64,000 nt of DNA, taken from positions 133,743 through 197,742 of the forward strand of contig CP060219.1 in assembly GCA_023898365.1 (NCBI GenBank). Reading direction: 5' to 3'. The DNA is from Candidatus Woesearchaeota archaeon (GTDB lineage Archaea; Nanobdellota; Nanobdellia; Woesearchaeales; GCA-023898365). Of this stretch, positions 20,285-63,906 are shown piece after piece. Every line of letters begins with the position of its first letter. Position 1 is the first letter of the stretch. Both the position numbers and the translations under genes were made by a program. The notes below the pieces were generated by a model, which did not search any database, was not told where the DNA came from, and worked only from the letters and a program-made list of their open reading frames with translations.

Positions 20285-20316
20285 TTTTTTTTTAATTTTT
20301 TTCTTTCTCTTTCTTT
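20285..20316 (+). terminator. T-rich terminator tract
   Basis: T9 and T7 runs begin about 18 nt after the stop at 20267. Confidence 0.35.
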
Positions 20317-20376
20317 TTGTTCCAGCCCTTACAGAACAAAACACTTATATACACGATTCGTCCTTTTTTTCTCAGA

Positions 20377-22526: not shown

Positions 22527-22574
22527 ATCGAATAATTCTTATTTAACGAAAAAAACATAAATTTACATAATTTT

Positions 22575-22603
22575 TAATTATATCTTAATTATTCACTAAT
22601 TAT
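22575..22603 (+). promoter_or_regulatory. Three TAATTAT direct repeats at exact 11-bp phasing (candidate operator)
   Basis: TAATTAT occurs at 22575, 22586 and 22597 inside a ~165-bp very AT-rich spacer. TATA-like TTTATAAA (22665-22672) is centred about 27 nt before the ATG at 22695. Confidence 0.4.
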
Positions 22604-22694
22604 CCATATTTTCATAAAATCAAATAATAACTATTATTTTCTAAAAATATCATAAAAAGAAAACTTTATAAAGGTAAAAGTTGAGTTCACCCAT

Positions 22695-32214: not shown

Positions 32215-32266
32215 AAGAAAAAGAGAAAGCACAAGTTATTTTTTAAAATGATGGTTTATTGAAGAT

Positions 32267-34368: not shown

Positions 34369-34745
34369 TTTTTCACCTCTTCAAGCTCTTGTCTTGTTAC
34401 AAAGTTCTGTGGTTGCCAAAGATTAATATATGTTTCTATTTCTTTAAGTTCGGGCTGTCTTGCCAAAAACTTCATTTCTGAGCGTAATAGTGCAAGTTCT
34501 GCTTGCATTTCATGCAGTGTTGACTTTATGGCAAGAAGATCTTCTGAAAGGTCTCTTATTTCTCTCACTGCGTCTTTACTTACTTCTCTGAATCGATCGT
34601 CAGTTATTTGGTTTTTTTTGTGGAGCGTTCCATTTCGTTCTTCAAGAAGCTTGATGCGCGTATTAAGGTGAGTTATTTTTTCAGAATAATCTGTTCCCTC
34701 TTGTTTTTTCCCCTTTTCAGGAGGTGGAAAGAGTTCATTTGCCAT
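34365..34745 (-). CDS. Coiled-coil protein
   Basis: 126 aa with a 4-nt overlap with the downstream gene. Heptad-rich, ending 'YINLWQPQNFVTRQELEEVKK'. Confidence 0.6.
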   Translation of the reverse strand: MANELFPPPEKGKKQEGTDYSEKITHLNTRIKLLEERNGTLHKKNQITDDRFREVSKDAVREIRDLSEDLLAIKSTLHEMQAELALLRSEMKFLARQPELKEIETYINLWQPQNFVTRQELEEVKK

Positions 34746-34888
34746 ACGCTATGCCTTTGCAAGTATCATTTATTAAGCTATTGTTTGTTTAGCTCAATTT
34801 ATTGAGTTGTAAGAAACAAAGAATGTAACCTAAAAATATTAACTTTTCAGTAGTAATATTTATAAACAAGATATGAGTTTCTCTTCCT

Positions 34889-35155
34889 ATGAAAGCACTT
34901 ATCATGCTCCCCATCGTTCTTGGCATCATTCTCACTACAGCAATGAGTTTGCAGGAATTTGCAGAATCTTCAAGTGAGAAAGCAATAGATTTTGCAGATG
35001 ATATGAACAACGCATTTAGCTGCGCGGCGCTAGGAAAATCAATCTTTGAGTGCTCACCAGATCTGAAAACCACAGATTTTACCAATGAAACCATCAAAGC
35101 AAAAGAACTCATTGCAGAACTCGAAGAGAATCTCGACGACGCAAACCAATTCTAA
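34889..35155 (+). CDS. Small secreted/anchored acidic protein
   Basis: 88 aa with N-terminal hydrophobic 'MKALIMLPIVLGIILTTAMS'. Confidence 0.4.
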   Translation: MKALIMLPIVLGIILTTAMSLQEFAESSSEKAIDFADDMNNAFSCAALGKSIFECSPDLKTTDFTNETIKAKELIAELEENLDDANQF

Positions 35156-35169
35156 AGTAGTAGTTACGT

Positions 35170-37032
35170 TTATTGCTTTTTAACCTTCTGTTTTAACCGA
35201 GCAATCATGTCTTCGCTTTGTTTAATCCGCTCATAGCGCTGTTGACGAAGAGCATCTTCCTGAGAAGCAAAAGTGGCCTGCGCTGCAACCACCTCTTTTT
35301 TTGCAAGGTCATCAATAGGAGGGGCAGCACCACCACCCGATCTCGAAGAAGAAATGTGAGATTTCAACGCCTTCGTTCGTTCATGCATCTGCTTAAGTGA
35401 TCGCACTTGTTTTCGTTTAGAGGAAGAAAAATAATTTGCAGGAAGCAAATAGACAAGGAGAAACAAAATAACTGATGCAAGACCAACCAATTCAAACCAA
35501 TGAATGGCAAGTAGGGCGATGCGAGACTCGATGATATTTACTAACAAAATTGTGGAACGCACAGAAGACATAGGAACTCCAAAAACACTCGGCAACGTAT
35601 TTAACACATCTTCAGAATCAGTAACATAAGAAGTGATCCACGATTCACCCTGATCGATACGATCAACCACCCAAACACCCTTCTTGGTGAACGGTTGAGA
35701 AATCTCTCTAAATTCAGCAGACTCCGGAATCAACTCTTTAACAACAAGATCTTCCAACGGACTTTCTCCCAAATTCAACAAATTAAGTGTGACGCGAATC
35801 TCATCTTGCGTAATGTACGCGACACTCTTTTGCACGAAGAGTTTTTTCTCAGGAATATATTGGCGAATGAACGGCAATGACGAGCTATACACCCTGTTTT
35901 TCCCATAAACAAATTCTCCAGCAGGGAAAAAATCAACACCTAACGAATCTTCATCAACATATTTGATCGCGTATTCGACCCGTTTTGACTTTCGAGGATT
36001 TAACGACATATCCCACGTAAGTGTTGAACCATCAGCATTCTTTGTTCCTTCGCCCGTATCAATAATTTCAAAACCCGAAGGAATCTCATCAGTGAGTTTT
36101 CCTGAAACAAGAAGCGGATCAAAATTATTCAAAATAAGTTTGACGTCAATAACGTCTCCTGGTAAGACTTGTGTTGAAGAAACAGTTTTTCTTAAAAACA
36201 CATTATTCAAAAGGAAGCTATTAAAGAACACATCTCGTCCAGTCCCATTTACTGAGGCATTCAAACTGTAATTAATCAAATCATCTTCAGTAAAGAGAGA
36301 AATATTGTTTGTTCTATTATACACGAACTGAGAGGCATCAAGAAACACGTCCGCTTGAAGCCAATAAATCTCCCCTTCGACCACTTCTTCATCGAAAAAA
36401 TCCTTCGCGTAAAATTCGCCAGGGCCAATTTGAGTAACCTCTCCTGTAAAATCCCACGATTCGAGTTCACGCGTAATATCCAAATCAGATGTTTTCGTCA
36501 CTTTAAATAAATCAAGTGTTAAATTAAAACTTGTTGGATTCTCAAAATGAACACTGATTAATCTTCTATCACGGCCAGTGATTGCTTCAACTTCTGGTTC
36601 GTTTTTGAGAAGTTGACCGAACACATCAGTGTAGACTTCGGGTTCTTCTTGGAAGATGCCACCTGCAAGAATAGGTTCCCCATCAACAATAGGATTAATC
36701 GACGTAATACCCAAAATATTGTAACTGAGTGAAATTGAGCTTTGCGGTTCAATACTAAAAATTATCAATCCTTGCGACGTCATCAATTGACCTGAAGAAG
36801 TTGCATTAGAGCGAAGTTCAAGACCAAACAAATTATACGGTATGTTAAGATTGTTAAGCGTGACTTCTTCTTGGTTATATATAGTGATTACTCCATCAAC
36901 ATTGACAACATAAAAATCATCGTAGAAACTTGTAATCTTGCCCGATTCGACAATATCAAAGACTATAGTACCTGCCGTTGCAAAAGGAAGGAGAAAAATG
37001 GCAAGAGTGAAAAAAAGAACAAACCATTTCAT
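35170..37032 (-). CDS. Type I membrane surface protein with two DUF11/CARDB-like modules and a cytoplasmic coiled-coil tail
   Basis: 620 aa. Signal 'FVLFFTLAIFLLPFATA'. Modules 'LPGDVIDVKLILNNFDPLLVSGKLTDEIPSGFEII' and 'IRVTLNLLNLGESPLEDLVVKELIPESAEF'. TM 'VGLASVILFLLVYLL'. Confidence 0.7.
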   Translation of the reverse strand: MKWFVLFFTLAIFLLPFATAGTIVFDIVESGKITSFYDDFYVVNVDGVITIYNQEEVTLNNLNIPYNLFGLELRSNATSSGQLMTSQGLIIFSIEPQSSISLSYNILGITSINPIVDGEPILAGGIFQEEPEVYTDVFGQLLKNEPEVEAITGRDRRLISVHFENPTSFNLTLDLFKVTKTSDLDITRELESWDFTGEVTQIGPGEFYAKDFFDEEVVEGEIYWLQADVFLDASQFVYNRTNNISLFTEDDLINYSLNASVNGTGRDVFFNSFLLNNVFLRKTVSSTQVLPGDVIDVKLILNNFDPLLVSGKLTDEIPSGFEIIDTGEGTKNADGSTLTWDMSLNPRKSKRVEYAIKYVDEDSLGVDFFPAGEFVYGKNRVYSSSLPFIRQYIPEKKLFVQKSVAYITQDEIRVTLNLLNLGESPLEDLVVKELIPESAEFREISQPFTKKGVWVVDRIDQGESWITSYVTDSEDVLNTLPSVFGVPMSSVRSTILLVNIIESRIALLAIHWFELVGLASVILFLLVYLLPANYFSSSKRKQVRSLKQMHERTKALKSHISSSRSGGGAAPPIDDLAKKEVVAAQATFASQEDALRQQRYERIKQSEDMIARLKQKVKKQ

Positions 37033-37739
37033 TCTGCACCCTTCTTTCGAAACGTAAAAACTGTTTTACCTAAGACGAGCACGATAACAATCAACCAAAA
37101 GATGTTTACCGCCCTAATCTTATCGTTTCTAAAGAAGGGAATAATCGAGTATTCAAAACTCAAACGCTCAGTTGGACCCCATTCGAGCAAAGTTGATGAG
37201 CCTTCTGAAGAAACAAGGGCATCAGGGGCGAACGTTACATGATATTTCTTTGGCAAGACAAACGAGGTCGTCTCAACTTTCCGTGGAATGGTAGTGTGCT
37301 CAGCAGGAATATCAATGCCATAGAATAAGATGCCTCGAGGCTTAAAATCTAACCAGTACGTCATAGTCACATCATAATAAAATTGTGGCAAAAGAGGATC
37401 CCAAATGGTAAACACAAGATCGGTAAAATCTGTTCCGGGAACAATCTTAGTATCTAGTCGTTGATCAAATTTGTTTTTTACGACAAATTCTGAGGCGCCA
37501 ATTGATTCTTCACGATCACCACCACTTACTAACTTTGAAAGTTTGAAATGAATCTCACCAGGAATAATAGGATTGTCGCCAACATTCTTGAGGCGAATTT
37601 CTTTTTGTACAAGAATTTTTCCATCTTCTAAAGAGTAAGTGGTTTGATAATTATCAAAAACAACAACTTCAGCAGAAACTTGAGATAGAGTGATAAGTAG
37701 GGAGAATAACAAAACCAGTAACGTAATTGATGTTCTCAC
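37029..37739 (-). CDS. Type I membrane protein, beta-rich ectodomain
   Basis: 236 aa with a GTG start. Signal 'ITLLVLLFSLLITLSQVSA' and C-terminal TM 'IFWLIVIVLVLG'. ATGA overlap with the 620-aa gene. Confidence 0.65.
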   Translation of the reverse strand: MRTSITLLVLLFSLLITLSQVSAEVVVFDNYQTTYSLEDGKILVQKEIRLKNVGDNPIIPGEIHFKLSKLVSGGDREESIGASEFVVKNKFDQRLDTKIVPGTDFTDLVFTIWDPLLPQFYYDVTMTYWLDFKPRGILFYGIDIPAEHTTIPRKVETTSFVLPKKYHVTFAPDALVSSEGSSTLLEWGPTERLSFEYSIIPFFRNDKIRAVNIFWLIVIVLVLGKTVFTFRKKGAE

Positions 37740-37794
37740 GGAACTTTACACCCCCAAAGTTGAAAAAATGAAAATAAAAAAAAATTGGAAGAAC

Positions 37795-39639
37795 CTATTT
37801 GTACTTCCTTAGCTTATGATTGATCTGCCTAGTCATCAACACGTTTGCTACATTGATCGCGATCAAAAACACCACGAGGCCAACATAGAACAATTCTCTT
37901 GTTCGCGTGCCAAGGACCGATCTCATCAAAATAGCTTCCGAACCACCAGCTCCATCAACTTTACGAGGGTCCAATCCTACAATGTAAAGTTCAGACGCAC
38001 GATAGTCACCGGATCCGTTTACCCAGTAACTCACATTCCAAGTCCTGTTATTGTATGACTCACTGATTGGACCAAGAGATGAGTTGTAAGGATTCTTCAA
38101 TGGAATATTCCATTGATGAGTCGTACCGTTAAACTCGGTGTTGGTAACGTTGGCGGACGCGTCTGGCGTTCTACTATACGTATAGTTGAATGGCGTGAAT
38201 TCTGAAGGCACGAAGTCGTAGACCGTGACCACTAAGTGTTGTGGCGTCCAGTCATTTCCAATGTTTTCAACTAAGATGTCAATGCGATATTGATCTTCGT
38301 ATGTTGAAACAACATCCTTATGCACTTCAAGCCAGTAGCCATTTACCACGTAGATGTACTTCATATAATAATCGTTGCCATTTCTCGTATATGTCGAGTT
38401 TAAAATTTGATTATAGGCGTTGATTATGTTGAAGTAAGGCAACATCCACACAACAGGTGGTGGAGAAGTTACCGGATCACTTCCGTCGGTAAAGTTAAAT
38501 TCCCATGCAGTGCTTAAGTAACCTGTTGACAAGTTGATTTCTTGATTTGGATACACCGTTGAGTTGAGTAATCCAAAGTCAGTCGTTCGGTTCGTCATAT
38601 TAAGCGTTGTTGTAACCCACATAGATAATTTTGTCAAGCGGTAAGCAATGTTAATTGGCGTGGTAACATTAGACCGCGCTTCCCACGTCACATTTGTATT
38701 GTTCTCATTATCTGCAGGCTGCACAATTCTTTTTGTTAAGTGATCATGTGCTTGCGCAGAAGCAATAACTGAATCTAAAGAGAGGTTAGATGCTAAATAG
38801 GAAATATTGTATCTAAGCGTCTCAGTGATTGCCTTGTACGTATCTGACGTTGGAACATTGTTTGGCGCAGTCACATTGTACTGAATCCAGACAGTTTCGC
38901 CAGGAACTAAGGTTCCTGCACTCGCTTGCCAATACCAACTCGTGTTACTTGTTCCATTCCCGTGGAGATTAGCAAAATCTCCAAGCTCGTAGAGTTCGTC
39001 AAGAGAGAACAAACTGTTTGTTCCATTCCATAAAATACCATTAACTTGGATAGAAATATTAATATCATTTACATTCTGGCCGACAGCTAAAACGTTGCTT
39101 GCTGATTGATTAACTTGCCAAGTGTGACCAGCAAGAACCTTCCTGTTAAATCCATGTTCGACATTTCCATAAGAAGTGTTAATATCTAATGGTGGTTGAA
39201 CTGAACCACAAGACATATTATAGTTAAACGTTGAAAAATTTCCTGCTCGAAGTTGAGGAATATGAACTTGAAAGACATCTCCTGGAGCAGAACCAAGAGT
39301 TTGCGAACCGTATCTTCCTGCAATGAGTGTGAAATTCGTACTCATTGTGTCCGTGTTCGAGAAGTTAATATAGATATCATCTACCGTGTCCGGACTTGGA
39401 TTAGTCACGTTGAGAATTCCAATGATCTCACATGTTGTCGTTGATTCCGTTAAATAAAAATTTTCTGCGTAGGTAACATTCTGATTGACTGTTTCAACCA
39501 ATGAAATGTTAATCCTTGTCGGAAGCGCTGAAGCCACCGACATAAATAGCAATCCTAACACTAAGAGAAAAATAGCTCGTCTCACCTTGGTCACCTTTGT
39601 ATATCTTTGAAAACGAATAGTTTCATGCGAGCAACACAC
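37795..39639 (-). CDS. Heavily sequon-decorated type I membrane surface protein
   Basis: 614 aa with about 30 N-x-S/T sequons counted by eye. Signal 'AIFLLVLGLLFMSVASA' and C-terminal TM 'LFYVGLVVFLIAINVANVLM'. An alternative GTG start at 39585 has GGTGA upstream. Confidence 0.7.
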   Translation of the reverse strand: MCCSHETIRFQRYTKVTKVRRAIFLLVLGLLFMSVASALPTRINISLVETVNQNVTYAENFYLTESTTTCEIIGILNVTNPSPDTVDDIYINFSNTDTMSTNFTLIAGRYGSQTLGSAPGDVFQVHIPQLRAGNFSTFNYNMSCGSVQPPLDINTSYGNVEHGFNRKVLAGHTWQVNQSASNVLAVGQNVNDINISIQVNGILWNGTNSLFSLDELYELGDFANLHGNGTSNTSWYWQASAGTLVPGETVWIQYNVTAPNNVPTSDTYKAITETLRYNISYLASNLSLDSVIASAQAHDHLTKRIVQPADNENNTNVTWEARSNVTTPINIAYRLTKLSMWVTTTLNMTNRTTDFGLLNSTVYPNQEINLSTGYLSTAWEFNFTDGSDPVTSPPPVVWMLPYFNIINAYNQILNSTYTRNGNDYYMKYIYVVNGYWLEVHKDVVSTYEDQYRIDILVENIGNDWTPQHLVVTVYDFVPSEFTPFNYTYSRTPDASANVTNTEFNGTTHQWNIPLKNPYNSSLGPISESYNNRTWNVSYWVNGSGDYRASELYIVGLDPRKVDGAGGSEAILMRSVLGTRTRELFYVGLVVFLIAINVANVLMTRQINHKLRKYK

Positions 39640-42379: not shown

Positions 42380-43690
42380 TTAACTCATTTTTACTGGCCA
42401 GACATACTCCAATTCCTGATTGATCGCTTCAGGAGCAGTAACAACCACTTCTTCAGTTGTGCCTGTTCTTGGAATAAGTCGAATATCAAATGATTCGCCG
42501 CCTTCAATCGAAGAAGGTAAACGGAAATGTATTTTGATGACGTCATCTTCATGAACTGAACCAAGTGAATAATCAGGTCCACGTTTTGCATAGGTTACTG
42601 CGAACGTTCCTTGACCCACAGAAGGAGGTGAAACTGTAAACGTGTCGCCCGCATCAATAGTACGCTTAGCAGTCGTCAGACCATACGTTTCTAAATAACC
42701 TGCAGGATCACCAGCAAGCGTAGTAAAAGACGTCCTTGACTTGTCAAAGGTTGCACCAATCGAAGAAATATCTCCTCCTAAAGGAACGGCGACACCTTCT
42801 GTTGAGTTATATTGCACAGAAACATTTCCATCCGATGAGAAGAAAAAGATAGCGTGCGACTCATTCAAACCCATCCACTCATACTCTTGATCGTTATCAT
42901 GATCATTAGCTAAATAGTAAGGATTCCTAAATAGATGCACTTGATTTGCGTTAATGCCGTTCGAGTTGTTGTTTTTTCCAAAAATAGAAATTAGCCCATA
43001 TCCGGATATGTTTGTTAAAAAGTTTCCAAACTGACCCCCGCCAGAACCGATAAGTCGAACGCCACCAGATGCATTAACAGGCCTCACGTACTGAATTCCT
43101 GCACTGGAGACATTGATCATGAGCCATCTTGTTCTCGAAGCTTGACCAAAGCAAGGATTCGTGGCAAGATTTCCAACATCACTTCGACAAGATCTCGCAG
43201 TTTCATTGATGCCATCGCCGTCAATATCCACATTCAGATTGACAAAGGCAAAAAATCCAATTTGCACTTTATTTGTCCCATAAAAAGGAGCATGAAGTTC
43301 ATCAAATTCTTGATCAGAATAAATAGTATACCCCGTAAATGAGTACGCAGCCTCAGCATCAACACCAGCATATTGATAGGAAGATGACGCATCGCTTGCA
43401 CCCGCCAGAATAGTGAGTTGACTTAGTGACATAATATCAGAACCAGGAGTTAAGTGAGCTACAACTTGGACATCTTCCAAATAACTGTCCGTACCATCAG
43501 TAGCAGTAATTTCGGTAACCAGTAAGTGCGAAGCAACATTTGAGTTCACAGAATTTCCCGCTTGGATGGTAGTTTCTTGAAACGACCCACTCGTTCGAAT
43601 TATAACTAATGAAACAAATCCAGCAATAATTATCATAGACAAGACGACAAGCACTAATCCGAGACCAGCAACAGCTCGCTTTCCAACCAT
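42380..43690 (-). CDS. Archaellin-domain (class III signal) protein, about twice normal archaellin length
   Basis: 'MVGKRAVAGLGLVLVVLSMIIIAGFVSLVIIRTSGSFQETTIQAGNSVNSNVASHLLV' aligns by eye to the archaellin N-terminus (..[45 protein letters not shown]). The maximal ORF starts at 43753. The ATG at 43690 is preferred: it gives a short basic pre-sequence and has GGGGTG 8-10 nt upstream. Confidence 0.75.
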   Translation of the reverse strand: MVGKRAVAGLGLVLVVLSMIIIAGFVSLVIIRTSGSFQETTIQAGNSVNSNVASHLLVTEITATDGTDSYLEDVQVVAHLTPGSDIMSLSQLTILAGASDASSSYQYAGVDAEAAYSFTGYTIYSDQEFDELHAPFYGTNKVQIGFFAFVNLNVDIDGDGINETARSCRSDVGNLATNPCFGQASRTRWLMINVSSAGIQYVRPVNASGGVRLIGSGGGQFGNFLTNISGYGLISIFGKNNNSNGINANQVHLFRNPYYLANDHDNDQEYEWMGLNESHAIFFFSSDGNVSVQYNSTEGVAVPLGGDISSIGATFDKSRTSFTTLAGDPAGYLETYGLTTAKRTIDAGDTFTVSPPSVGQGTFAVTYAKRGPDYSLGSVHEDDVIKIHFRLPSSIEGGESFDIRLIPRTGTTEEVVVTAPEAINQELEYVWPVKMS

Positions 43691-43818
43691 TGGACTACAC
43701 CCCACGATAATTCGTAAGTTGCACAATTTATAAAACTTCTCATTTAAGGACATGCTGGCAAGTTGAAGAAATAGTAAAAAACAAAACTATATAAAACAAA
43801 GTTTTTGTGCTTTAACCA

Positions 43819-53146: not shown

Positions 53147-53884
53147 TTAATCATTATCCACTCGTGGTGCGAGGACAAAGCTTAACTCTAATTTGTTGAG
53201 TTGTTTGTACTCGATGTTGAGCGGGTAATCATCTGAGAATTTGAGCGTCATTTTATCTGCAAGTTTGCTTCCTTGCATGATTTTCTTTAAGTACTCAATG
53301 GAGTATTTTGATTTTGCTTCTTTTTCTACCACTATTTTTGTGGTGTCGTCGCCTTCCATTTCAACGTCCGCTTTTGTGAGGTCGTTTTGGGATGCGATGA
53401 TGAATTTGTTCTTTTCTGTTTGTAAGGTGACTGATTCACCAACAATATCCATATCATCAATTGCTTCTGCGAAGCTTGAGGAAAGGGTTACTATAGTTGA
53501 AGAAAAGGTTAGTCCTGGAACGCGTTGTTCTTGTTCGTCCATTTCTAAGAGTGGTAATTGGAAGGATCTCTTTGTTTTTGCTTTTAAGGTAATGTGAAGT
53601 TTTGAATCCTTAAGTTCGAGTGTGAGCGTGTCGTTTGGTCCTGCTCGTCTAAGAACTTGTTTGAGATTGTTCAGATTAATCGCGATTGTTTGCGGTTCTT
53701 TTATGTCATATTCGACAAAACAGGAAGATAGAAGCTTGAAAATGACCATGGCAACGTTTGCTGGGTCAATTGCGACGAGTTCCAAGCCATCGCTTGTGAA
53801 CTTCATGGAAGTTTCAGTGACAAGATCAGAAATTATGGTAATTGAATCTTTGAGCAATCTTGGTTCAGATAGTGTTAGTCTCAT
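53147..53884 (-). CDS. pcn: DNA polymerase sliding clamp PCNA
   Basis: 245 aa from the ATG at 53884. 'MRLTLSEPRLLKDSITIISDLVTETSMKFTSDGLELVAIDPANVAMV' and two-domain length match the PCNA pattern. Confidence 0.88.
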   Translation of the reverse strand: MRLTLSEPRLLKDSITIISDLVTETSMKFTSDGLELVAIDPANVAMVIFKLLSSCFVEYDIKEPQTIAINLNNLKQVLRRAGPNDTLTLELKDSKLHITLKAKTKRSFQLPLLEMDEQEQRVPGLTFSSTIVTLSSSFAEAIDDMDIVGESVTLQTEKNKFIIASQNDLTKADVEMEGDDTTKIVVEKEAKSKYSIEYLKKIMQGSKLADKMTLKFSDDYPLNIEYKQLNKLELSFVLAPRVDND

Positions 53885-53960
53885 TTTCTCCTCCCAGTAT
53901 AAGAAAAAGATCACGTTCTCTTTATATATTTTTTACTTTTCAAGAGTATATAAAGGATGC

Positions 53961-55214
53961 CTATGGCCAGACGAAAACATCTCCGTTTTCAAGAATGCGT
54001 GCTTGTGCACCGTGTTGTTCTGCAAGGAGTTTCACGGAATTGTTTAATTCTGGCGTGCCATGTGTTGGCAGGACCAATTTTGGCTGTGCAAGCGTAAGAA
54101 GTTTCTCCCTATCAGGCCTTGTTGCGTGTCCCGAGGTGTGAATTTCTTTTGTGACGTTCGTGTTCCGTTCTTCAAGGAGAGCTTCAAGTGCTCGGCGATT
54201 CTCTTCATTTTCTGGTGTTGGTATGACTCTGCAACTAAAGATGACTTCGTCACCTTTCTTAAAGTTGTAAAGGCCCTTTCTGACCATACGCGAAAGAACT
54301 GCTGAAGGCTCAGCTTGATGGCCAGTGACAAGAAGGACGTGCTGCGAGGGATCAACAAGTGATGCAAGAAAATTTTCGATCTTCTTTGGACGTTTAAGCA
54401 CCCGAACGTCTTCAAAATCAATACCTATCTCTTCGGCTGCTTTCACATACTTGTGCAAAGAATTGCCAAGGAGGGTGATTGTTCGACCAGAACGCTTTGC
54501 GCAATCTATAATGGTCTTGATTCGGGAAATATGTGATGCGAAAGTCGTAACGACAACCAAACCTTTTTGTTTGGTAATTTTTCGAAGCAAAGAACACATA
54601 TCCCGCGCAACCGACTGTTCTGTAGGATTCGTTGTCATCACTTCATTATTCAAACTGTTCAAAATAAGAATATCTGGCTTTGCAGCGACAATCCCTTCAT
54701 AATCAGGAGGTTCGCCAAGTGTTGGGGCATCATCTAAACGAAAATCATTCGCGTAAAGAATTCTTGCTGTTTTGGTTTTGACAAGAATAAGTGCGCTTTG
54801 GATCGTAGAATGTGTCACATGAATAAATTTTACTTGAATATTCCCGACCTTGATGTTGCGCTCGAAAGACACAGGTTTAAGATTGAGCTTCTTATTATAC
54901 TGTCGGATAACTGCCAAAGAAAAAGGCGTACCATACACGGGAAAAGGAAGGTGTTTGTAAAATTGCAACGCGCCCAAATGATCAAGATGCGCGTGAGAGA
55001 TAAACAAGGCCTTAACCTTTTTTTTCACATCCGTAATATTAGGGATTGCTCCAATACTGCGCAACGCCTTCAAACTCATTTCGGGAAGCGCATTCTTGCT
55101 GAAACGATCGACATGAAGACCAAGATCGAGTAAGAGACCATCACTTCCTTCTTCAATGTACGTGCAATTCCTACCTATCTCGCCATAACCACCCAAAGGA
55201 ATAATTTTTACCAT
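53961..55214 (-). CDS. rnj: Archaeal RNase J-like metallo-beta-lactamase/beta-CASP ribonuclease
   Basis: 417 aa. 'KIIPLGGYGEIGRNCTYIE', 'FISHAHLDHLGA', C-terminal 'HTSGHA'. Confidence 0.8.
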   Translation of the reverse strand: MVKIIPLGGYGEIGRNCTYIEEGSDGLLLDLGLHVDRFSKNALPEMSLKALRSIGAIPNITDVKKKVKALFISHAHLDHLGALQFYKHLPFPVYGTPFSLAVIRQYNKKLNLKPVSFERNIKVGNIQVKFIHVTHSTIQSALILVKTKTARILYANDFRLDDAPTLGEPPDYEGIVAAKPDILILNSLNNEVMTTNPTEQSVARDMCSLLRKITKQKGLVVVTTFASHISRIKTIIDCAKRSGRTITLLGNSLHKYVKAAEEIGIDFEDVRVLKRPKKIENFLASLVDPSQHVLLVTGHQAEPSAVLSRMVRKGLYNFKKGDEVIFSCRVIPTPENEENRRALEALLEERNTNVTKEIHTSGHATRPDREKLLTLAQPKLVLPTHGTPELNNSVKLLAEQHGAQARILENGDVFVWP

Positions 55215-56175: not shown

Positions 56176-56312
56176 TGCGGGGGAAGGGATTCGAACCCTC
56201 GAACCTACTTAAGGACTAGATTCCTCAAAGGCGCAAACGATCCAAATGATAGTTTGCCTGCGTAAGCAGTTTCTTGAGTCTAGCGCATTTGACCAGACTT
56301 TGCTACCCCCGC
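56176..56312 (-). tRNA. tRNA-Leu (anticodon CAA), class II, with a 51-nt canonical intron; no encoded CCA
   Basis: I folded it by hand. Acceptor GCGGGGG/CCCCCGC. D-arm TAGCAAAGTCTGGTCAAATGC is archaeal Leu-like. Anticodon stem CTAGA/TCTAG with loop CTCAAG|A. It has a long variable arm and T-arm GAGGG-TTCGAAT-CCCTT. Confidence 0.9.
56222..56272 (-). other. tRNA-Leu intron at canonical 37/38
   Basis: The 51 nt lie between CTCAAG and ATCTAG. The intron 3' segment TTTGAG pairs with anticodon-loop CTCAAG, leaving a GA|A bulge as expected for a bulge-helix-bulge motif. Confidence 0.8.
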
Positions 56313-56372
56313 GCTAAGGAGAAGAAAACCTAGCTGGTTTTTTAAATGTGATGGTAAGAAAGAGAAAAAGAA

Positions 56373-56732
56373 TCAGAGATTTTTCAGTTTTTCATCAATC
56401 TCGGCAAGCGTTGCCTTTATCATTTCATAGTCTTCGCTTGGTCCTTTTTTGACAGCTAACTGTTTGGATTGTGCTGGCGCTAACTGTTTTTTCGCAGTTA
56501 CTGGTTTCTTTTCTCGTTTAATGCTTTTTTCTGGAAGCAATCCATCAAGTTTTTGCACAAGAAGAGTGAGCTCTTTGAGTTGCCCTTTCAAGTTCGAGAT
56601 TTGCAAAATTTTTTCTTTTCGCAAATTAAGTACTTTAACGTATCGCTGCATGTCTGAAAGAACAAGTTTTGATGTTTCTAAGGTTCGTCTGCGAAAAGAA
56701 TCCTTGTCCGCAATCGTTTTGTAGAGAGTCAT
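56373..56732 (-). CDS. Coiled-coil protein (third gene of a three-gene operon)
   Basis: 119 aa. ATGA overlap with the upstream gene. 'DMQRYVKVLNLRKEKILQISNLKGQLKEL...LLPEK' and a Lys-rich middle. Confidence 0.55.
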   Translation of the reverse strand: MTLYKTIADKDSFRRRTLETSKLVLSDMQRYVKVLNLRKEKILQISNLKGQLKELTLLVQKLDGLLPEKSIKREKKPVTAKKQLAPAQSKQLAVKKGPSEDYEMIKATLAEIDEKLKNL

Positions 56733-56950
56733 TTTTGTCCAGTTGAGAGCGCGTCATGGAGCGCTTGAATGCGTTCTTCAACAGTGCTAATATTTTCTGT
56801 CCAATTGTCCAGTTCGTCGTCTTCTTGACGTTTAAGGTCATTGATTGATTTGAGCGTTAGTTTTGCTTCGTTTACTTTTTCTTTAAGCACTGCTAGGATG
56901 CCAAGCACCTCTTTGTATTCATCTATTTTGATAAACGTTGGATTTTCCAT
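56729..56950 (-). CDS. Coiled-coil protein (second gene)
   Basis: 73 aa from the ATG at 56950 (the maximal ORF starts with TTG at 56989). 'MENPTFIKIDEYKEVLGILAVLKEKVNEAKLTLKSINDLK'. GAGGT lies upstream within the preceding stop region. Confidence 0.55.
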   Translation of the reverse strand: MENPTFIKIDEYKEVLGILAVLKEKVNEAKLTLKSINDLKRQEDDELDNWTENISTVEERIQALHDALSTGQK

Positions 56951-56954
56951 AGTT

Positions 56955-58043
56955 TTAACCTCGTTCAAACAAGCGGCTATCAATTGCAAGAAGTTTTTCT
57001 TGCACCTCGTTCATTTTGTCATACCAAGATTGCATTGCGTTATTGAGTTTGCTATACTTCAAAATATACCCGTCTATGCGTCGAAACTGCTTGGAAACGT
57101 GTTGTTTGACATTGTCCACATCATGAAGAAAGTCGTGGTATTCCCATTTTTCTACAAACACGCCTTCGTCGTCTTGCACCAAGGATTGTTCTGCGATTGG
57201 AAGATCATTTTTTGCAATAAGCGTTGGGGGAACAAATGCTGGCAGTTCTTCTGATGGCGCAACATCTTGTCCGAAGTCAGGAAGCACAGAAAGATCATCT
57301 GCTTCTTTCACCGGTTCAGGTTTCACCTCATCTTCAGGTCGGACTTGAATAGGTAAATCAATTCCTTCATCAAGATTAAGATCTGCAATGTCTTTTGTTA
57401 AATCATCATCAAACTCAGGCATTTCTTCAGATTCTTTTTCAGGAACCACTTCTTTTTTGGGAAGTGATGGGCTTACCAAGGAAACATCATCAGATTCCGG
57501 AGTAGTATCCGTACTGCGTCTTCCAAACATTGAAGGTTCGTCAGTAGCATCTTGCAGTACAAAATCTTTTTCTGCATCTTGCATGGCCGTGTCAGGAAGC
57601 ACTTCTTGGCCAATAATGCTCTCTTCATCAGATGATCCTTTCGCTCCGACAACGGTTGGCGTCATAAGTTCTCCTTCTTCATCTTGCAGTTGTCCAAAAT
57701 TTCTTGAAGGAGGAGGAGCTTGCAAAGTAGATTTCTTTTCTGTTGCTCCAGGCAAAAGGTCTGAATGATCATGTGAAGGGGCATCTGAAAAGAATGAATC
57801 TTCTGAAGAAGCATCAGATTGTTCTTCACCATCAACCTCTTGTTTTGTTGCTAGAGAGGAAACGGGAGATGGCTTCGCACTCGCAGCTGAAAACGCTGAA
57901 GGAATTTCTTGCAAAGGAGGCTCTTGAGAAGGAGCGGGCACACTCTTCATCGTAGGTGGTGGCGGAACAGCCAAATCACCAGAACTTGTTTCAAGCAGAG
58001 GGTTAACGTCCTCTGGCTTTTTCTTTCTACTAAATAATCCCAA
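56955..58043 (-). CDS. Protein with basic amphipathic N-terminus, about 270-aa acidic/Pro-rich disordered region and C-terminal coiled-coil domain (first gene)
   Basis: The maximal ORF reaches the ATG at 58193 but would overlap aCPSF2 by 70 nt. A TTG at 58043 follows GAGGTG (58052-57) and TATA-like TATATAAATA (58081-90), giving (M)GLFSRKKKPEDVNPLL... The C-terminus is 'VFVEKWEYHDFLHDVDNVKQH...'. Confidence 0.55.
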   Translation of the reverse strand: MGLFSRKKKPEDVNPLLETSSGDLAVPPPPTMKSVPAPSQEPPLQEIPSAFSAASAKPSPVSSLATKQEVDGEEQSDASSEDSFFSDAPSHDHSDLLPGATEKKSTLQAPPPSRNFGQLQDEEGELMTPTVVGAKGSSDEESIIGQEVLPDTAMQDAEKDFVLQDATDEPSMFGRRSTDTTPESDDVSLVSPSLPKKEVVPEKESEEMPEFDDDLTKDIADLNLDEGIDLPIQVRPEDEVKPEPVKEADDLSVLPDFGQDVAPSEELPAFVPPTLIAKNDLPIAEQSLVQDDEGVFVEKWEYHDFLHDVDNVKQHVSKQFRRIDGYILKYSKLNNAMQSWYDKMNEVQEKLLAIDSRLFERG

Positions 58044-58123
58044 AAATCCTACACCTCTAATCTTTGTTTTATCTAAACAGTATTTATATACTTTTCTGTT
58101 TAGAAAAAAATATTTTTTGTCAT

Positions 58124-59413
58124 TCAAAACGTAATGGTTTCCCCAATTGAAGGGCCCATTACCGTTGTTTGTGGCAACGCTTTCTTTCCCCATGCAAGCA
58201 TGGCTTCAATTGCTTCAGGATCTCCATGCTGCACAATAAGCTTTTTTGGATTGATGCTTTCAATAAATGCATGTAAATGATTTTGATCTGCATGACCTGA
58301 AAACATGAATTGTTTCACATCACAGTCAACTTGGGTTTTCCAACCTTTTAGGTAAATTGCACGTTCTTCGAGAAGCATTCTTCCTTGGCATCGATGGCAT
58401 TGATAGCCTGTTAAGAAGATTGCTGATTTCGGATCATGCCAAATATGTTTTATGTAATGAATAACCGGGCCTCCTTGCACCATACCTGATGTCGAGACAA
58501 AAATTCCTGGTCTTGTTGCAGCATAATTTCTTCGTTTTTCACTTGAAACAAAACGCACCTTTGAAAACATTTCTTTTAATGCAGGCCTTCCTTGGAGATG
58601 CCGTTCAGAATTTCTTAGAACTGTTTTGGTTATTTTAGTGGCCATTCCATCAAAATACACAGGAACATCCCATTTTGCGCGAGAGAGAATTATGAGAATG
58701 TCTTGCGCTCGTCCAACGGCAAAAACAGGAATAACGACGCGCCCACCATTTTTTACAACACGTTCAACTTCGCTCAAAAACTCTTCAGCAAGTTGGGCCT
58801 TCTCTGGTAGAGGCCTGTTTCCATAGGTTGATTCAGTTATCATAATATCAATTGGTGGAAGATGCGCATCAGCAGGCGCCATGAGAAGTTGTTTTCCAGG
58901 ATTAAAATCACCCGTGTAGAGAATATTCTTCCCTTCGGTTTGAAGCAAGAGCATGCCAGCACCAGGTATGTGTCCTGCGTTATAAAAACTGAATGCATCT
59001 CCTCGATGTTCGTATTGCGTGCCAAGACGTACAGGTTTAACATATAAGGAGATTTTTCGCAGATCTAAACTATCATATGCTGGATGCAAATGTTTGATGC
59101 GAGCTATCTTGTAAGAATCTTTGAGAAGAATTTTTATCAAACCCCACGTTTGTGGCGTCATGTAGAAAGGAAATTTTACTTTTTTTGCAGAAAGTTCATG
59201 CACAAGAAGTGGAAGTCCTCCTGAATGATCAAGATGAGCGTGGCTCAAAAACAACGCACTTACTTGTTCAGGATCTTTGAGTCCTTCAGGATAATCATAC
59301 CCTGACGAACTGAATTTGATTCCGTAATCGAACAAATATCTATTCTTTGATCGTAACTCAATACAACTACGGCCTACTTCATTAGCTGCGCCATGAAAAA
59401 CCAACTCACCCAT
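58124..59413 (-). CDS. beta-CASP metallo-beta-lactamase ribonuclease, aCPSF2-like (no KH domains)
   Basis: 429 aa. 'FLSHAHLDHSGGLP', 'NAGHIPGA', C-terminal 'FSGHAD'. TATA-like ACATATAAAT (59435-59444) is centred about 27 nt upstream of the ATG. Confidence 0.85.
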   Translation of the reverse strand: MGELVFHGAANEVGRSCIELRSKNRYLFDYGIKFSSSGYDYPEGLKDPEQVSALFLSHAHLDHSGGLPLLVHELSAKKVKFPFYMTPQTWGLIKILLKDSYKIARIKHLHPAYDSLDLRKISLYVKPVRLGTQYEHRGDAFSFYNAGHIPGAGMLLLQTEGKNILYTGDFNPGKQLLMAPADAHLPPIDIMITESTYGNRPLPEKAQLAEEFLSEVERVVKNGGRVVIPVFAVGRAQDILIILSRAKWDVPVYFDGMATKITKTVLRNSERHLQGRPALKEMFSKVRFVSSEKRRNYAATRPGIFVSTSGMVQGGPVIHYIKHIWHDPKSAIFLTGYQCHRCQGRMLLEERAIYLKGWKTQVDCDVKQFMFSGHADQNHLHAFIESINPKKLIVQHGDPEAIEAMLAWGKKALPQTTVMGPSIGETITF

Positions 59414-59567: not shown

Positions 59568-61253
59568 ATGAAAAAAACCCAGATAGTGTTCATTATCATC
59601 CTCGGGTGCTGTATGATAAGTTCCTTCGCCAGTTCTTGCAATGAAAACATGACAGGATGTTTTGACGTAGAACTAACACTCCACCAAACAGAACCAGTAC
59701 TTAACACAACATACACGAATTTATTTCGATTGGAAAATTTAGATCATGAACAAGGAGTGGAAGAACAACTACGCATTTTTGTAACCTATAATGTATCATG
59801 GCATAACGAAACGTACAATAATTCATTTCTCAAGACAATCAACTCCTATTCAACGACCGGAACAGGAACGTTTACGTTTTCTGCAAACACAAGCCATCTT
59901 CTCTGCGGCGAAATCAGAAACATTTCACAAAACGGAGAGCAGATTAGTGATCCCCACCCGGAAAATAATGTTCTTTGCACCGCAATTGTTTTCGATAACA
60001 CCAGTAATGCAACGGTCAACGAAACAGGTAACGCAACAAACGAGTCTGAAGAAGGAGTTTGCAATCAATCAGTACGTTTCCTCGTTTTGCAGGCGCTAAG
60101 CAATCACAGTTTTCAATTTAAACCAATAATTTCTGCAGAACAACATTGGACGCTCACCTATTGGATAGAAGATCTTGATGGTGTCATATTCAAACAACCT
60201 ATGAACACAACAAACACGAACTGGAAATCATTTACTCCCAGCTCAAGTGTTACGGGAGAAAAAATATTCAGGCTTTACGGACGTCTCAACACAACGTGTG
60301 CACAAACAGAAAACTCAACGTTTCTTTTGCTCAAAAGAGCGCAAGAAGAAAATGAAGAATCATCAGAAAGTGAATGCGTAGAAGATGAAGAAGAACAACA
60401 AGAATCAGCATTGTCATTTACCGCATTACCTGAGGAAATAATTGCAGGATCGACAATTTCGATAAAAGTCAAGGCATACCGAGGAAATACGCTCAAAAGG
60501 AAAGTGACGTTGAGAGGTCCTGGCAATCAAATGAGTTTTTTGATTAACGACAAATATGCTGAAACAGAAGTGACCATTCCCTTCACTATTGAGAAGAGTT
60601 GTTCACTCGAAGAAGGACCAGTTGATTTTATCCTTTCAGGTCTTGACGAAGAAAAAATTATTACCGCGCAGCTTTTCAGACCAACTCAAGATGAGTGCCA
60701 ACCAGCAGAAACGAATGCGACTACCAGCTCACCAAGTCAAAATAGCATTGCAAGTTTTTATACGCGAAAGAAAAAATATGCGCCGCACATAAATTTTTCC
60801 TATCGTCTTGAGCAAGAGTCAAACGACAGCTCAATACTACTTATCATTCCACATCTCCTTCTCAATACAACGACAAATGTGCCTGCTAAGCCAGGCAACA
60901 ACACCGTTTTTTTTCTGCTTAAAGAAGGAGAAGACATAATTGATTTTTTTGAATATCAGTATTTTCTTGAAGATGATTCGCTTAGTCTTGGCGAAAGTGA
61001 AGATCAAAAAGAATCCGAATCCGACTCGTCGAACAACACTCAACGTGAAGACAGTGATCGTTCTCCGCTTACTGGTTTAACCATTTCAGTTCCAAAGAAT
61101 GAGGGGAAGAAAGTAATCGCAATTAGTGTTTTAATCATGCTCGGCATAGCAACATTCGCTGTTGCGCTCATCAAACGAAAGAACATTATTTACGCGGTAC
61201 AACATAGTAGCTTTTATCTTCATAAGAAGAATTCAAAGGATGGAAAGGGTTGA
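59568..61253 (+). CDS. Sequon-rich type I membrane surface protein
   Basis: The ATG at 59568 gives 'MKKTQIVFIIILGCCMISSFASS' (maximal ORF starts at 59547). It has many N-x-S/T sequons and a C-terminal TM 'VIAISVLIMLGIATFAVALI'. Confidence 0.65.
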   Translation: MKKTQIVFIIILGCCMISSFASSCNENMTGCFDVELTLHQTEPVLNTTYTNLFRLENLDHEQGVEEQLRIFVTYNVSWHNETYNNSFLKTINSYSTTGTGTFTFSANTSHLLCGEIRNISQNGEQISDPHPENNVLCTAIVFDNTSNATVNETGNATNESEEGVCNQSVRFLVLQALSNHSFQFKPIISAEQHWTLTYWIEDLDGVIFKQPMNTTNTNWKSFTPSSSVTGEKIFRLYGRLNTTCAQTENSTFLLLKRAQEENEESSESECVEDEEEQQESALSFTALPEEIIAGSTISIKVKAYRGNTLKRKVTLRGPGNQMSFLINDKYAETEVTIPFTIEKSCSLEEGPVDFILSGLDEEKIITAQLFRPTQDECQPAETNATTSSPSQNSIASFYTRKKKYAPHINFSYRLEQESNDSSILLIIPHLLLNTTTNVPAKPGNNTVFFLLKEGEDIIDFFEYQYFLEDDSLSLGESEDQKESESDSSNNTQREDSDRSPLTGLTISVPKNEGKKVIAISVLIMLGIATFAVALIKRKNIIYAVQHSSFYLHKKNSKDGKG

Positions 61254-63906
61254 GTTCAAGATGAGTATTTGTTGAAACGTCAATCATTCTTCGCCACACT
61301 TCTTGTGACACGTCAGGAGACATCGGATAGGATTGTTCGAGGAGGCCATGATATGCTTGAGAAGTAAACAGCAATTGCCCCACATTAAATCCTGAAAAAA
61401 CTGCACCTTTTCCTCTACGAGAATATCTGCGTAGATCTGATTGACCTCGTTCACTTGAAACATTTAAGAAACCAATATTCCCTCCAAGTCCAAGAACAAA
61501 ATTTGCTTCTCGCGTATCACCACCAATATCTGCAGTGCCCGATTTCCCCCACAACAATTCTTCCCCTGCTTGATCGGTTAAAAAAACGCCAGTTGGCCAC
61601 GTTCGAAGACGCTGCCTCCACTCAGCTCGGTCTTTCTCAGATGGTGCAATAAGTGAATTTGGAGGCAATCCTTCGTAACCATATGAATAAGGAACAATCC
61701 TCGCATATGCTTGCGTTGCAGAAGCTGCAAAGGGTGAAAGCCCTCCATGAGGACTTATAGCCCGCTCAACAAAGACCGTGTCAGCACTACCGTTTGAAAC
61801 AACAAGTTTCGAAAACCAGCGAAGACCTGGAACTTCAATTGGTGCAGCTCCTTCGAATAGTACTTTGTTTGTTGTCAGCGCACCATGGTTTTGAAACATT
61901 AACAGGTAGGTAAGCGCATCATCAATATGAAGGGGCACTGCGCCAAGAATAGTTGCGTCAATCTTTGGATCTAATTGGTGTGATCGAGAAAATCCGATAC
62001 GCTCATTCCAAAATGAAGCAAGTTCTTCAGTGATAGTTGGCCTGCCTTCTTCTCTTCGTGCATTGTTTCCAATATTAAGAAGATTGACAAAATAGCGGTT
62101 TATTGACTTGCCAAGCGCAAAACTAAAATCGACAAGACCCCAATATTTATTTTTAAAATTTTTTATAGGAGGAGAAAATACGGGTCTTCCTTTCCAGTTA
62201 ATTCGTTTGTAGCGAACAGGATTAACGGGCGTGTCAGAAAAAATTTCTCTATCAAGTCCTTCTTCGATAAAGAAAGGAGCGTAGAGAAGCTTGCAAATAC
62301 TTCCAATTTGCCTTGGTTCATCAAACGAATGACCAGTTGCTTTTCCTCGGGTATTACTAAAAGCGGCAATGACATCGCCTTGTCTGCTTGCAACAATTCC
62401 CGTGAGATTAGGATCATCATCAATCGATAAGAGCGTGTCAAGAGATCCGAAGAGGCGAGGAACAAGCGTCTGTTGTTGATAAGGAAAATTTGTCAACGTC
62501 GTATGCACAGCAAGGTTTCTTGCAAGCAATTCTTCTCCCGTTTGTTTTGAAAGGTAACGCAAAATTTCACTTGCACGAGCATAGAGTGTGTTTTTTAACG
62601 CAATAGCGCCAGCGTTTTCCAAAGGTGCAGGTTTGCGGCCAGCAATTGAACTTGCAAACGAAAGAGATGAAGGAGGAGTAATACCATTTCCTTCAAGCGT
62701 TGGAGCAATTCTATAATGAAAATCATCTTGAAACAATTGTGCGAGAGAATCAACATATGCTTGCTGCGTGTTTGGTTCTCCTAAAAATCCTTCTGAATTA
62801 ATCGAAGGTTTGTTTGTTGAGGTGAGAAGCATCATCATTTCTGTTTCTGAAAGTGGCGAAGTGCGACCAAAATGGTGTAAAGATGCTGCGGCAAGGCCTC
62901 TTGAAAAAACACCTCTGTCAAGGCCAAACGGGATGTTATTAAGCGCGAGTTCGAGTAAGCGATACTTAATTACTTCTCTTACTTGTCTTTCAGGAAGCGT
63001 TGCTGCAAATGTTCGCTCCGCATCAGAAAAGAGGGGTGTTGTGGAAGGGTCAGCTACAAGAACAGAACGCGTAATTTCCTCAAGTTTTCTACCATAATCT
63101 CGTTCAAATTGTTTGTCGTCGCCAAGACGCATGAGTTGTTGCACAATAGTGCTGCTTCCTTTTGGAGATCCTGGTTTACTATCACTTCGCAGACCTCGAA
63201 CTAAGGAAGGCAAATCAATTCCGAAAAGCGAATATCCTTCGACCCCCTCCCAGTAATTCAAGAATTGAAGAACTTCAGAAGGCCTATACGTGGTGGTGTC
63301 TTGATGCCACGCACCTTTTTCAAAAAATTGTGAGTAAAATCCTGGAAGTACCTTCCCCTCTGAATCGCGAAGAACGGTAAGCGAATCTGGCAAGAAAATA
63401 GGAGGAGGAGTTCTATTTCGAAACATTTCTTTGCCTTGCACATCATAGACAATGAATTGTCGATTATGAGCAAATCCTTGCAAAGAAGCGATTTGATCCT
63501 CAAGAGAGTGTTCGTGAAGTTCCCTTTCAATACTCTGCGATAGCGCGTCCCAATCATGACCTTTGCGTTCAAGCACCACATCAATTCCTTTGAAAAGAGC
63601 TTGTTGGGTGAGTCCTAGACCTTCGTTTTTCCCTCCAAACCGCGCCACAAATGCTGCTGCAACGTTATCGTTACCTGATCGAAGGACAGCAGTTCCTACC
63701 TCTTGAACAAGTGACCGATAAGGAACGTGTGCAAGGGAGACGCCTATTGCAGATCCTGCGGCAAGAAGAGAAGCTGTTTTGAGAAGAGAGCGACGTTTTC
63801 GCGGAGCTCGTTCCTTGCTTGGAGAACCTTCTTTATTGAAATCTATCGTATAGAGTGGATCCTTCACAGATCCTTCTAAAGAGGGTTTAGAATCAGGCGC
63901 AACCAT
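61186..63906 (-). CDS. Class A penicillin-binding-protein-like bifunctional protein (GT51 glycosyltransferase + acyl-serine transpeptidase) with a Tat-like signal
   Basis: 906 aa. Tat-like signal 'RKRRSLLKTASLLAAGSAIGVSLA'. GT51 motifs 'EGVEGYSLFGID', 'KGSSTIVQQ', 'RKLEE', 'RLLELALNNIPFG..RGLAAASLHHFG'. Transpeptidase motifs SxxK 'GSICK', SxN 'KSINR', KSG 'GKSGTA'. TATA-like CATATATAAA (63929-63938) is centred about 27 nt upstream of the ATG. Confidence 0.8.
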   Translation of the reverse strand: MVAPDSKPSLEGSVKDPLYTIDFNKEGSPSKERAPRKRRSLLKTASLLAAGSAIGVSLAHVPYRSLVQEVGTAVLRSGNDNVAAAFVARFGGKNEGLGLTQQALFKGIDVVLERKGHDWDALSQSIERELHEHSLEDQIASLQGFAHNRQFIVYDVQGKEMFRNRTPPPIFLPDSLTVLRDSEGKVLPGFYSQFFEKGAWHQDTTTYRPSEVLQFLNYWEGVEGYSLFGIDLPSLVRGLRSDSKPGSPKGSSTIVQQLMRLGDDKQFERDYGRKLEEITRSVLVADPSTTPLFSDAERTFAATLPERQVREVIKYRLLELALNNIPFGLDRGVFSRGLAAASLHHFGRTSPLSETEMMMLLTSTNKPSINSEGFLGEPNTQQAYVDSLAQLFQDDFHYRIAPTLEGNGITPPSSLSFASSIAGRKPAPLENAGAIALKNTLYARASEILRYLSKQTGEELLARNLAVHTTLTNFPYQQQTLVPRLFGSLDTLLSIDDDPNLTGIVASRQGDVIAAFSNTRGKATGHSFDEPRQIGSICKLLYAPFFIEEGLDREIFSDTPVNPVRYKRINWKGRPVFSPPIKNFKNKYWGLVDFSFALGKSINRYFVNLLNIGNNARREEGRPTITEELASFWNERIGFSRSHQLDPKIDATILGAVPLHIDDALTYLLMFQNHGALTTNKVLFEGAAPIEVPGLRWFSKLVVSNGSADTVFVERAISPHGGLSPFAASATQAYARIVPYSYGYEGLPPNSLIAPSEKDRAEWRQRLRTWPTGVFLTDQAGEELLWGKSGTADIGGDTREANFVLGLGGNIGFLNVSSERGQSDLRRYSRRGKGAVFSGFNVGQLLFTSQAYHGLLEQSYPMSPDVSQEVWRRMIDVSTNTHLELNPFHPLNSSYEDKSYYVVPRK

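Follow-up and report, generated by a model that had tools for sequence, protein, structure and literature searches.

The DNA analysed here is a 64,000-nucleotide stretch of a Candidatus Woesearchaeota archaeon genome (contig CP060219.1, positions 133,743 to 197,742), the whole of which is referred to as the window and to which all coordinates apply. Its minus strand harbors three consecutive genes for coiled-coil proteins, denoted A, B and C. Gene A (NCBI H6502_01145, 56955-58043) is read from a TTG start codon and encodes 362 amino acids, gene B (H6502_01140, 56729-56950) encodes 73 amino acids predicted to form a single long coiled-coil helix, and gene C (H6502_01135, 56373-56732) encodes a 119-residue member of a separate coiled-coil family. 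For each of them an identical protein is present at NCBI, including the 362-residue product of gene A. The coordinates agree with the tight packing noted in a preliminary description of this DNA: the stop codon of A (56955-56957) is separated by 4 nt from the ATG of B at 56950, while the stop codon of B and the start codon of C share an ATGA overlap at 56729-56732. Ahead of gene A lies a putative promoter and ribosome-binding region (58052-58090, minus strand), read from the sequence, with a TATATAAATA box at 58081-58090, 5' of the TTG codon, and a GAGGTG element at 58052-58057, 8 nt ahead of it. Directly after the stop codon of C a T-rich run, ttctttttctctttctta (56355-56372, minus strand), is a possible archaeal oligo-T terminator. 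The three genes are a real, co-transcribed-looking set.

Started from B and the single relative detectable for it, an exhaustive profile search with a cutoff of E ≤ 1e-3 yields a B family of 1,464 cluster representatives, of which 186 are found at E ≤ 1e-10, and almost all are 70–80 residues long. In order to view the genomic surroundings, one genome per GTDB species was scanned in a pattern-seeded manner with a 9-sequence B alignment as query, and relatives of B were found in 223 species genomes; all per-locus counts given below refer to 80 loci out of these 223 genomes, each viewed over ±4 kb. All 80 loci belong to metagenome-assembled genomes of Woesearchaeota/Nanoarchaeota-type DPANN archaea. 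A gene for an A-type protein is located directly upstream of B in 70–72 of them and one for a C-type protein directly downstream in 77, and the order A-B-C is kept in 73–79, or about 75, of the loci, which stem from different species, with median intergenic gaps of 5 nt from A to B and 0 nt from B to C. This conserved order, together with the tight gaps, argues for stoichiometric co-production of the three proteins. Marine-metagenome contigs from Tara Oceans carry the same trio. No relative of it was found on the viral contigs of IMG/VR, and on this basis a viral or mobile origin was rejected. The trio is a genuine, conserved, unannotated three-gene system specific to DPANN archaea.

Pairwise BLASTP comparison of A, B and C from the window shows no significant similarity, so that profile methods are needed in order to relate them. 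The preliminary description had assigned a common module to all three proteins, which stands for A and B and is unsupported for C. In about 72 loci the B profile matches the C-terminus of the neighboring A-type protein with E values from 1e-4 to 1e-21, and hhalign aligns the C-terminal part of the A family to the B family over 70 columns (probability 99.7%, E 1.5e-25), pairing A VFVEKWEYHDFL... with B TFIKIDEYKEVL..., just as in the preliminary description, which quotes the B module as FIKIDEYKEVL.... Judged by these profiles, the C-terminal ~70 residues of A and B are clear paralogues. As a null for hhalign we used a reversed-sequence control, in which the heptad periodicity is preserved and which reaches a score of 20.3 (E ~1e-3). 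Against A and B the C profile reaches 20.8 and 22.9, scores at the level of this null, and thus a homology of C to A and B is undemonstrated. The reading of C as a third paralogue was set aside as unproven and, as far as sequence profiles tell, C is a separate family.

What C has in common with A and B is an FVxI-type cap, a helix of equal length and the register of its heptads. The segment DMQRYVKVLNLRKEKILQI, formerly taken as the module equivalent in C, is not the counterpart of the module; instead, the family alignment (cap-region consensus FFVGI.DP.E.RR..LESSK) places the cap at residues 3–7 of C (LYKTI). When the hydrophobic-core profiles are compared after anchoring on this cap, the correlation is highest at offset 0 (r=0.53 for B and C, r=0.54 for A and C) and drops to 0.13–0.22 at ±7; if the cap is left out, the core profile of C gives 0.50 at offset 0 versus 0.40 at +14. 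The helices of A, B and C all end at one position, about 62–63 residues past the cap, and this conserved end is formed by LFE-P in A and B and by LP in C.

Five short A-type proteins of 134–175 residues (P0060, P0110, P0129, P0144 and P0146) have a C-terminal module scoring like a true B protein (E ~1e-11 to 1e-14); all of them begin with MG[LIF]F.KKK and they are intermediates linking the A and B families. A 204-residue protein from the B-family search (P0154) carries a B-like module fused to an additional N-terminal segment, which by eye we take to be part of a bacterial solute-binding protein, and it is probably a chimeric metagenome assembly rather than a true fusion.

In Fourier analysis of the family profiles the best period is 3.50 for A, 3.50 for B and 3.45 for C over about 60 residues. 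In each of the three families this period of ~3.5 outweighs every other signal, bearing out the heptad repeats originally proposed for each protein, and each of A, B and C displays the 3.5-residue periodicity over at least four heptads of a canonical left-handed coiled coil. With a 130-sequence alignment AlphaFold2 predicts B as one helix spanning residues 4–71 (68 residues) at a mean predicted local distance difference test score (pLDDT) of 93. The single-sequence prediction of full-length A has pLDDT values below 50 except for a helix at residues 302–361, for which they amount to 78–96. This helix belongs to the B-like module of A (residues 292–362, 56958-57170, minus strand), in which an FVxK cap (VFVEKW) is followed by a heptad-repeat helix of about 60 residues ending in LLAIDSRLFERG. 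An isolated helix of 60 to 68 residues, as predicted for the C-terminus of A and for B, needs partners. Near-invariant in B are Tyr12, Lys40, Glu43 and Trp50; Lys40 and Glu43 appear to occupy core positions of the heptads, which suggests a specificity-determining polar layer within the helix. A Foldseek search of the B model against the PDB returned no match, which is uninformative and to be expected for a lone helix.

The N-terminal region of A bears on the choice of the start codon. Among the A homologues the consensus MG-[LFIV]-[FLM]-x-[FL]-[LF]-K-K-K is found in about 75 of 80 when the correct start is taken, with examples such as MGLFGFLKKK, MGFLKFLKREKK, MSGLFSRKKK and MGLFGKKKK. Because of this conservation the 5' end of gene A is placed at 58043 and not at 58193. 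An ATG at the latter position would entail a 70-nt overlap with the upstream gene and would cross the promoter-like intergenic region, and the TTG start favored from the outset is thus backed by the GAGGTG element, the TATATAAATA box, the NCBI call and the motif in the homologues. In the window the hydrophobic and polybasic motif comprises residues 1–9, (M)GLFSRKKK (58017-58043, minus strand). The start of A had been characterized as basic and amphipathic; it is indeed hydrophobic and basic, but the amphipathic character is not borne out, since the hydrophobic moment of MGLFSRKKKPED is 0.25–0.28 and equals background, and the stretch is interrupted by Pro10. Across the A family the median moment of the N-terminus is 0.45, compared with a linker background of 0.26 whose 95th percentile is 0.53, and the family consensus MGLFDFLKKK is moderately amphipathic. 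Judged by sequence, a hydrophobic dipeptide with a polybasic cluster describes the N-terminus of the window protein better than an amphipathic helix does.

Residues 10–291 of A (57171-58016, minus strand) form an acidic, Pro-rich and presumably disordered linker, as judged from composition and pLDDT values below 50. Residues 14–270 contain 23% Asp and Glu, 12.5% Pro and 17% Ser and Thr and are predicted to be disordered; in the family the linker measures 49–323 residues with ~20% Pro, ~21% Asp and Glu and a median net charge of -14.5. The layout noticed before, with an N-terminal motif of membrane-targeting type, a long acidic Pro-rich disordered linker and a structured C-terminal module, is borne out and is conserved. 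Short motifs were counted in the linkers of the whole A family and compared with composition-preserving shuffles, than which they are 3.5- to 7-fold commoner: [DE][LIVM]P occurs 299 times (shuffled 84±9), [DE]x?ΦPxΦ 140 times (28±5) and ΦPxΦP 129 times (18±4). The pentapeptide LPELP is found 22 times versus 0.4 times in the shuffles. Examples of the [DE]-Φ-P-x-Φ type in the linker of the window protein are DLAVPPPP, EIPSAF, EMPEF, VLPDF, ELPAF and DLPIA; here the motifs are of a ΦPxF flavor (EIPSAF, EMPEF, VLPDF, ELPAF) accompanied by AVPPPP, and ΦPxΦP is absent.

Protein C continues beyond its helix. The LYKTI cap and the ~60-residue helix are followed by the conserved LP, a Lys-rich linker (approximately residues 67–98) and a conserved terminal amphipathic helix, DYEMIKATLAEIDEKLKNL. 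In the C family this linker has a median length of 31 residues (19–79), a net charge of +6 and 31% Lys and Arg, and it is variable in sequence; its basic charge is opposed to the acidic one of the A linker. The terminal helix has the consensus SELeKLEsELaaIEeKLgsL, and a Φ..[KR]Φ..Φ pattern at the extreme C-terminus is present in 69 of 75 C members versus 13 of 581 background open reading frames.

As stated in the preliminary description, none of the three proteins can be placed in a named family. Neither Pfam nor NCBIfam gives a threshold match for A, B and C of the window, for 130 B members or for 26 C members, the sub-threshold Pfam matches being scattered coiled-coil noise (Med9, NPV_P10, Laminin_II, Occludin). 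SepF, Snf7 and PspA_IM30 do not come up when A, B and C are run against Pfam with hmmscan at E ≤ 1, nor are they among the top families for the 130 B and 26 C members. Sequence and profile searches of the PDB produce best E values of 0.004–0.19, all for generic coiled coils. For the window proteins PADLOC returns zero matches and PHROGs nothing but noise at E ≥ 0.007, and nearly all matches in word-indexed homologue searches are the query proteins themselves. No earlier description of the trio family was found in the literature.

Taken as an analogy to known anchors, a membrane-associated scaffold would appear to be the best reading of the trio. At a probability of roughly 0.55, we propose that A, B and C together make up one peripheral-membrane complex, which would serve as a membrane-tethered scaffold or adaptor specific to Woesearchaeales-type DPANN archaea. 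Each protein would supply one heptad-repeat helix of about 60–68 residues, extending from the FVxI-type cap to the common end. Running parallel and in register, the three helices would build a heteromeric coiled coil ~9 nm long, in the simplest case with a 1:1:1 stoichiometry; A would join it through its B-like helix. The complex might be hung on the cytoplasmic face of the membrane by the MG-Φ-F-x-F-L-KKK motif at the N-terminus of A, with the acidic Pro-rich linker acting as flexible tether and its many [DE]-Φ-P-x-Φ(-P) copies as multivalent docking sites. The Lys-rich linker and the terminal amphipathic helix of C could provide a second interaction surface, for which acidic lipid, nucleic acid, the acidic linker of A or a partner protein are candidate targets. 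In principle such a complex would work like the anchors of the ZipA, CdpC or SepF type. The analysis shows the gene order and its tight coupling, the paralogy of A and B, the single long heptad helices and the conserved motifs; we infer the hetero-oligomerisation, stoichiometry and orientation of the helices as well as membrane binding by A and any partner. Near the trio RNase J recurs in 41 of 80 loci and PCNA in 25, both downstream, and ScpB in 22, which is a weak hint at cell-cycle functions; division or segregation as the cellular process concerned is only a guess.

Several points weigh against this proposal. The stoichiometry and orientation of A, B and C rest on inference, and the trio has no known partner. 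The alignment of the C helix with the other two, expressed in the cap-free correlation of 0.50 at offset 0, just modestly exceeds the value of 0.40 at offset +14. The N-terminus of A in the window is short, broken at Pro10 and, by its hydrophobic moment, lacks amphipathic character, and even the family median of 0.45 does not reach the 95th percentile (0.53) for the linker background; membrane binding by A would have to rest on Leu-Phe and four basic residues. Finally, the recurrent neighbors RNase J, PCNA and ScpB may reflect lineage synteny instead of function.

The closest working analogues of A are the anchors CdpC, SepF and ZipA. CdpC (HVO_0399) is the haloarchaeal membrane anchor of FtsZ1, for which an N-terminal amphipathic helix, a disordered linker and a partner-binding C-terminal domain have been shown experimentally, its N- and C-terminal domains each containing an essential zinc finger (bioRxiv 10.64898/2026.07.16.738847). 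Both CdpC and A are archaeal and fast-evolving, and A has the same three-part architecture, the likeness being confined to architecture. In contrast to CdpC, A has no zinc fingers (no Cys in the window protein and 17 Cys in 17,675 residues of the A family), its C-terminal domain consists of one coiled-coil helix, for which two partner helices are co-encoded, and there is no sequence relationship between the two. The comparison is an architectural analogy and carries no evidence for FtsZ binding by A. In ZipA of E. coli a membrane anchor, a charged Pro-rich flexible tether and a C-terminal partner-binding domain follow one another (10.1101/2020.10.06.327809), which is the layout proposed for A; ZipA differs by its transmembrane helix anchor, its globular FtsZ-binding domain, its gammaproteobacterial origin and by being the product of a single gene. 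SepF (PF04472) likewise has an interaction domain joined via a linker to a short membrane-targeting sequence at the N-terminus, and MGLFDFLKKK is of the same physicochemical type as its targeting sequence. Whereas the dimerising core of SepF is compact and of the alpha/beta type and its linker is short, A has a linker of 50–320 residues and a lone helix.

The SepF/ESCRT-III-like relationship suggested in the preliminary description is not upheld by the searches described above or by the prediction of single helices, which contradict a helical hairpin as well as a SepF-like alpha/beta core; the comparison stands solely as an analogy in layout. In its explicit form, in which the trio would be a remodelling or FtsZ-anchoring protein of the ESCRT-III/PspA/Vipp1 or SepF kind that perhaps engages an MIT-domain ATPase via motifs like the MIT-interacting motifs MIM1 and MIM2, we consider it very unlikely. 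A start of the MG-[LI]-F type and a helical, charged and, for the trio, presumably membrane-associated nature are common to both sides, and the MGLFSR... or MGLFDF... start of A presumably resembles the beginning of helix α0 of PspA/Vipp1 and some targeting sequences of ESCRT-III and SepF. The trio differs in lacking an α1-α2 hairpin and in having its helices spread over three genes, and no Pfam profile or PDB entry matches. The enrichment of ΦPxΦP and LPELP in the A linkers and the Φ..[KR]Φ..Φ pattern of 69 of 75 C proteins, comparable to an LxxKLxxL helix, recall MIM2 and MIM1, respectively. The consensus of MIM1 is (D/E)xxLxxRLxxL(K/R), and its acidic -3 position is present in none of the 75 C proteins. 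LPELP occurs also in the MIM2 of Sulfolobus CdvB (RELLPELPHPP), and the full MIM2 consensus reads φPxφPxxPφP (PMC5840170); it is present in 1 of 80 A proteins and not in the one of the window, a relaxed form being found in 30 of 80. So quantified, the motif reading was rejected. Furthermore, Woesearchaeota already encode a genuine SepF elsewhere (10.1101/2020.10.06.327809). A further reading makes the trio a hitherto unrecognised cell-biological module of Woesearchaeales at large, in which a heterotrimeric coiled-coil hub tethered to the membrane would use its multivalent [DE]ΦPxΦ(P) motifs and the C-terminal amphipathic helix in order to bring a division, segregation or membrane-remodelling machine (e.g. 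FtsZ or an MIT-domain ATPase) to the membrane, and which would be a new archaeal divisome or remodelling adaptor unrelated in sequence to SepF, CdpC, ZipA and ESCRT-III; we put this forward tentatively, with the odds clearly against it.

Every structured part of the trio is a long heptad-repeat helix, and three subunits that would be co-expressed, as gene order suggests, are joined by a membrane-targeting-type N-terminus on A, all of which would suit a self-assembling sub-membrane lattice or filament like DivIVA or crescentin, with homo- and hetero-oligomers polymerising and A pinning the polymer. Such an assembly is fairly unlikely, considering that the helices are short (~9 nm) with caps and ends conserved to the residue, that extended rod domains and stutter-rich repeats are absent, and that the disordered linker makes up most of the mass of A. 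An unlikely alternative of a different kind places the function at the chromosome or at RNA, which the complex would tether to the membrane with the Lys-rich linker of C binding the nucleic acid and A as anchor, in a segregation or nucleoid role. The basic composition of the C linker and the recurrence of RNase J, PCNA and ScpB speak in its favor, as does the position of the window operon between a beta-CASP nuclease and RNase J/PCNA; on the other hand, no DNA- or RNA-binding domain was recognised in profile scans of the trio, neither the length nor the sequence of the Lys-rich segment is constant, and the neighbors are found on either strand and in about half of the loci or fewer. That the three open reading frames are unrelated or partly spurious small genes which are merely adjacent is hardly credible: the silent BLASTP comparison and the missing family annotation agree with it, but 1,464 B representatives, the order and spacing kept in about 75 species-level genomes, the strong profile homology of A and B and the confident AlphaFold2 helix of B do not, and the conservation data refute it.

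Most DPANN archaea, for instance Woesearchaeota, have not been cultured, and the majority of the genes peculiar to their lineages lack an assigned role. By the present analysis three 'hypothetical proteins' become a defined system of two unnamed families (A/B and C) with a conserved operon that hundreds of species share, a start codon now settled, a conserved N-terminal motif of membrane type, a linker rich in short linear motifs and a structural model in the form of a parallel heteromeric coiled coil. If the trio does act as an anchor or hub in division, segregation or membrane remodelling, it would constitute a further archaeal way, beside SepF and the recently described CdpC, of attaching cytoplasmic machinery to the membrane; if it does not, Pfam/arCOG curation still gains a clean target.

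Upstream of the operon lies the gene of an aCPSF-like ribonuclease of the beta-CASP/metallo-beta-lactamase type (58124-59413, minus strand). Downstream follow tRNA-Leu, a small lipoprotein-like open reading frame, a second beta-CASP/metallo-beta-lactamase ribonuclease, RNase J (53961-55214, minus strand), and next to it PCNA (53147-53914). The tRNA-Leu(CAA) gene (56176-56312, minus strand) is located 60 nt downstream of gene C and contains a 43-nt intron after the anticodon loop; it was found by Rfam and by ARAGORN with the option -i, while default ARAGORN gave no tRNA in the whole window. In 45 of 80 loci (including L011) a conserved protein of ~197 residues (MKEAEIQEKLKAGFMRARIIFEMIGNPKEH...), to which no Pfam family matches, is encoded ~2.4 kb upstream of the trio on the opposite strand, often near a ScpB homologue; none was seen beside the operon in the window.

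Elsewhere in the window, a 906-residue protein (61186-63906, minus strand) matches Pfam Transgly (E 4e-11), a transglycosylase domain of the GT51 peptidoglycan type, which to our knowledge is unusual for archaea and might serve in a role related to pseudomurein or murein or directed at a host. An archaeal exosome operon (13250-15617, minus strand) encodes a Rrp41/Rrp42-like RNase PH pair and Rrp4, and further housekeeping genes specify a DNA ligase (3937-5718), an RNA 3'-phosphate cyclase (8257-9303), a class I aminoacyl-tRNA synthetase (28203-31040) and the archaeosine TGT (31120-32232). Two runs of large open reading frames (18294-26572, plus strand, and 32267-39639, minus strand) show no Pfam match or only the surface-type domains Big_9, DUF11 and DUF4215. 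Together with an S-layer-like protein (1368-3563) and an archaellin/pilin-like protein with a sub-threshold Arch_flagellin match (42380-43753), these are probably cell-surface proteins of the present DPANN archaeon.

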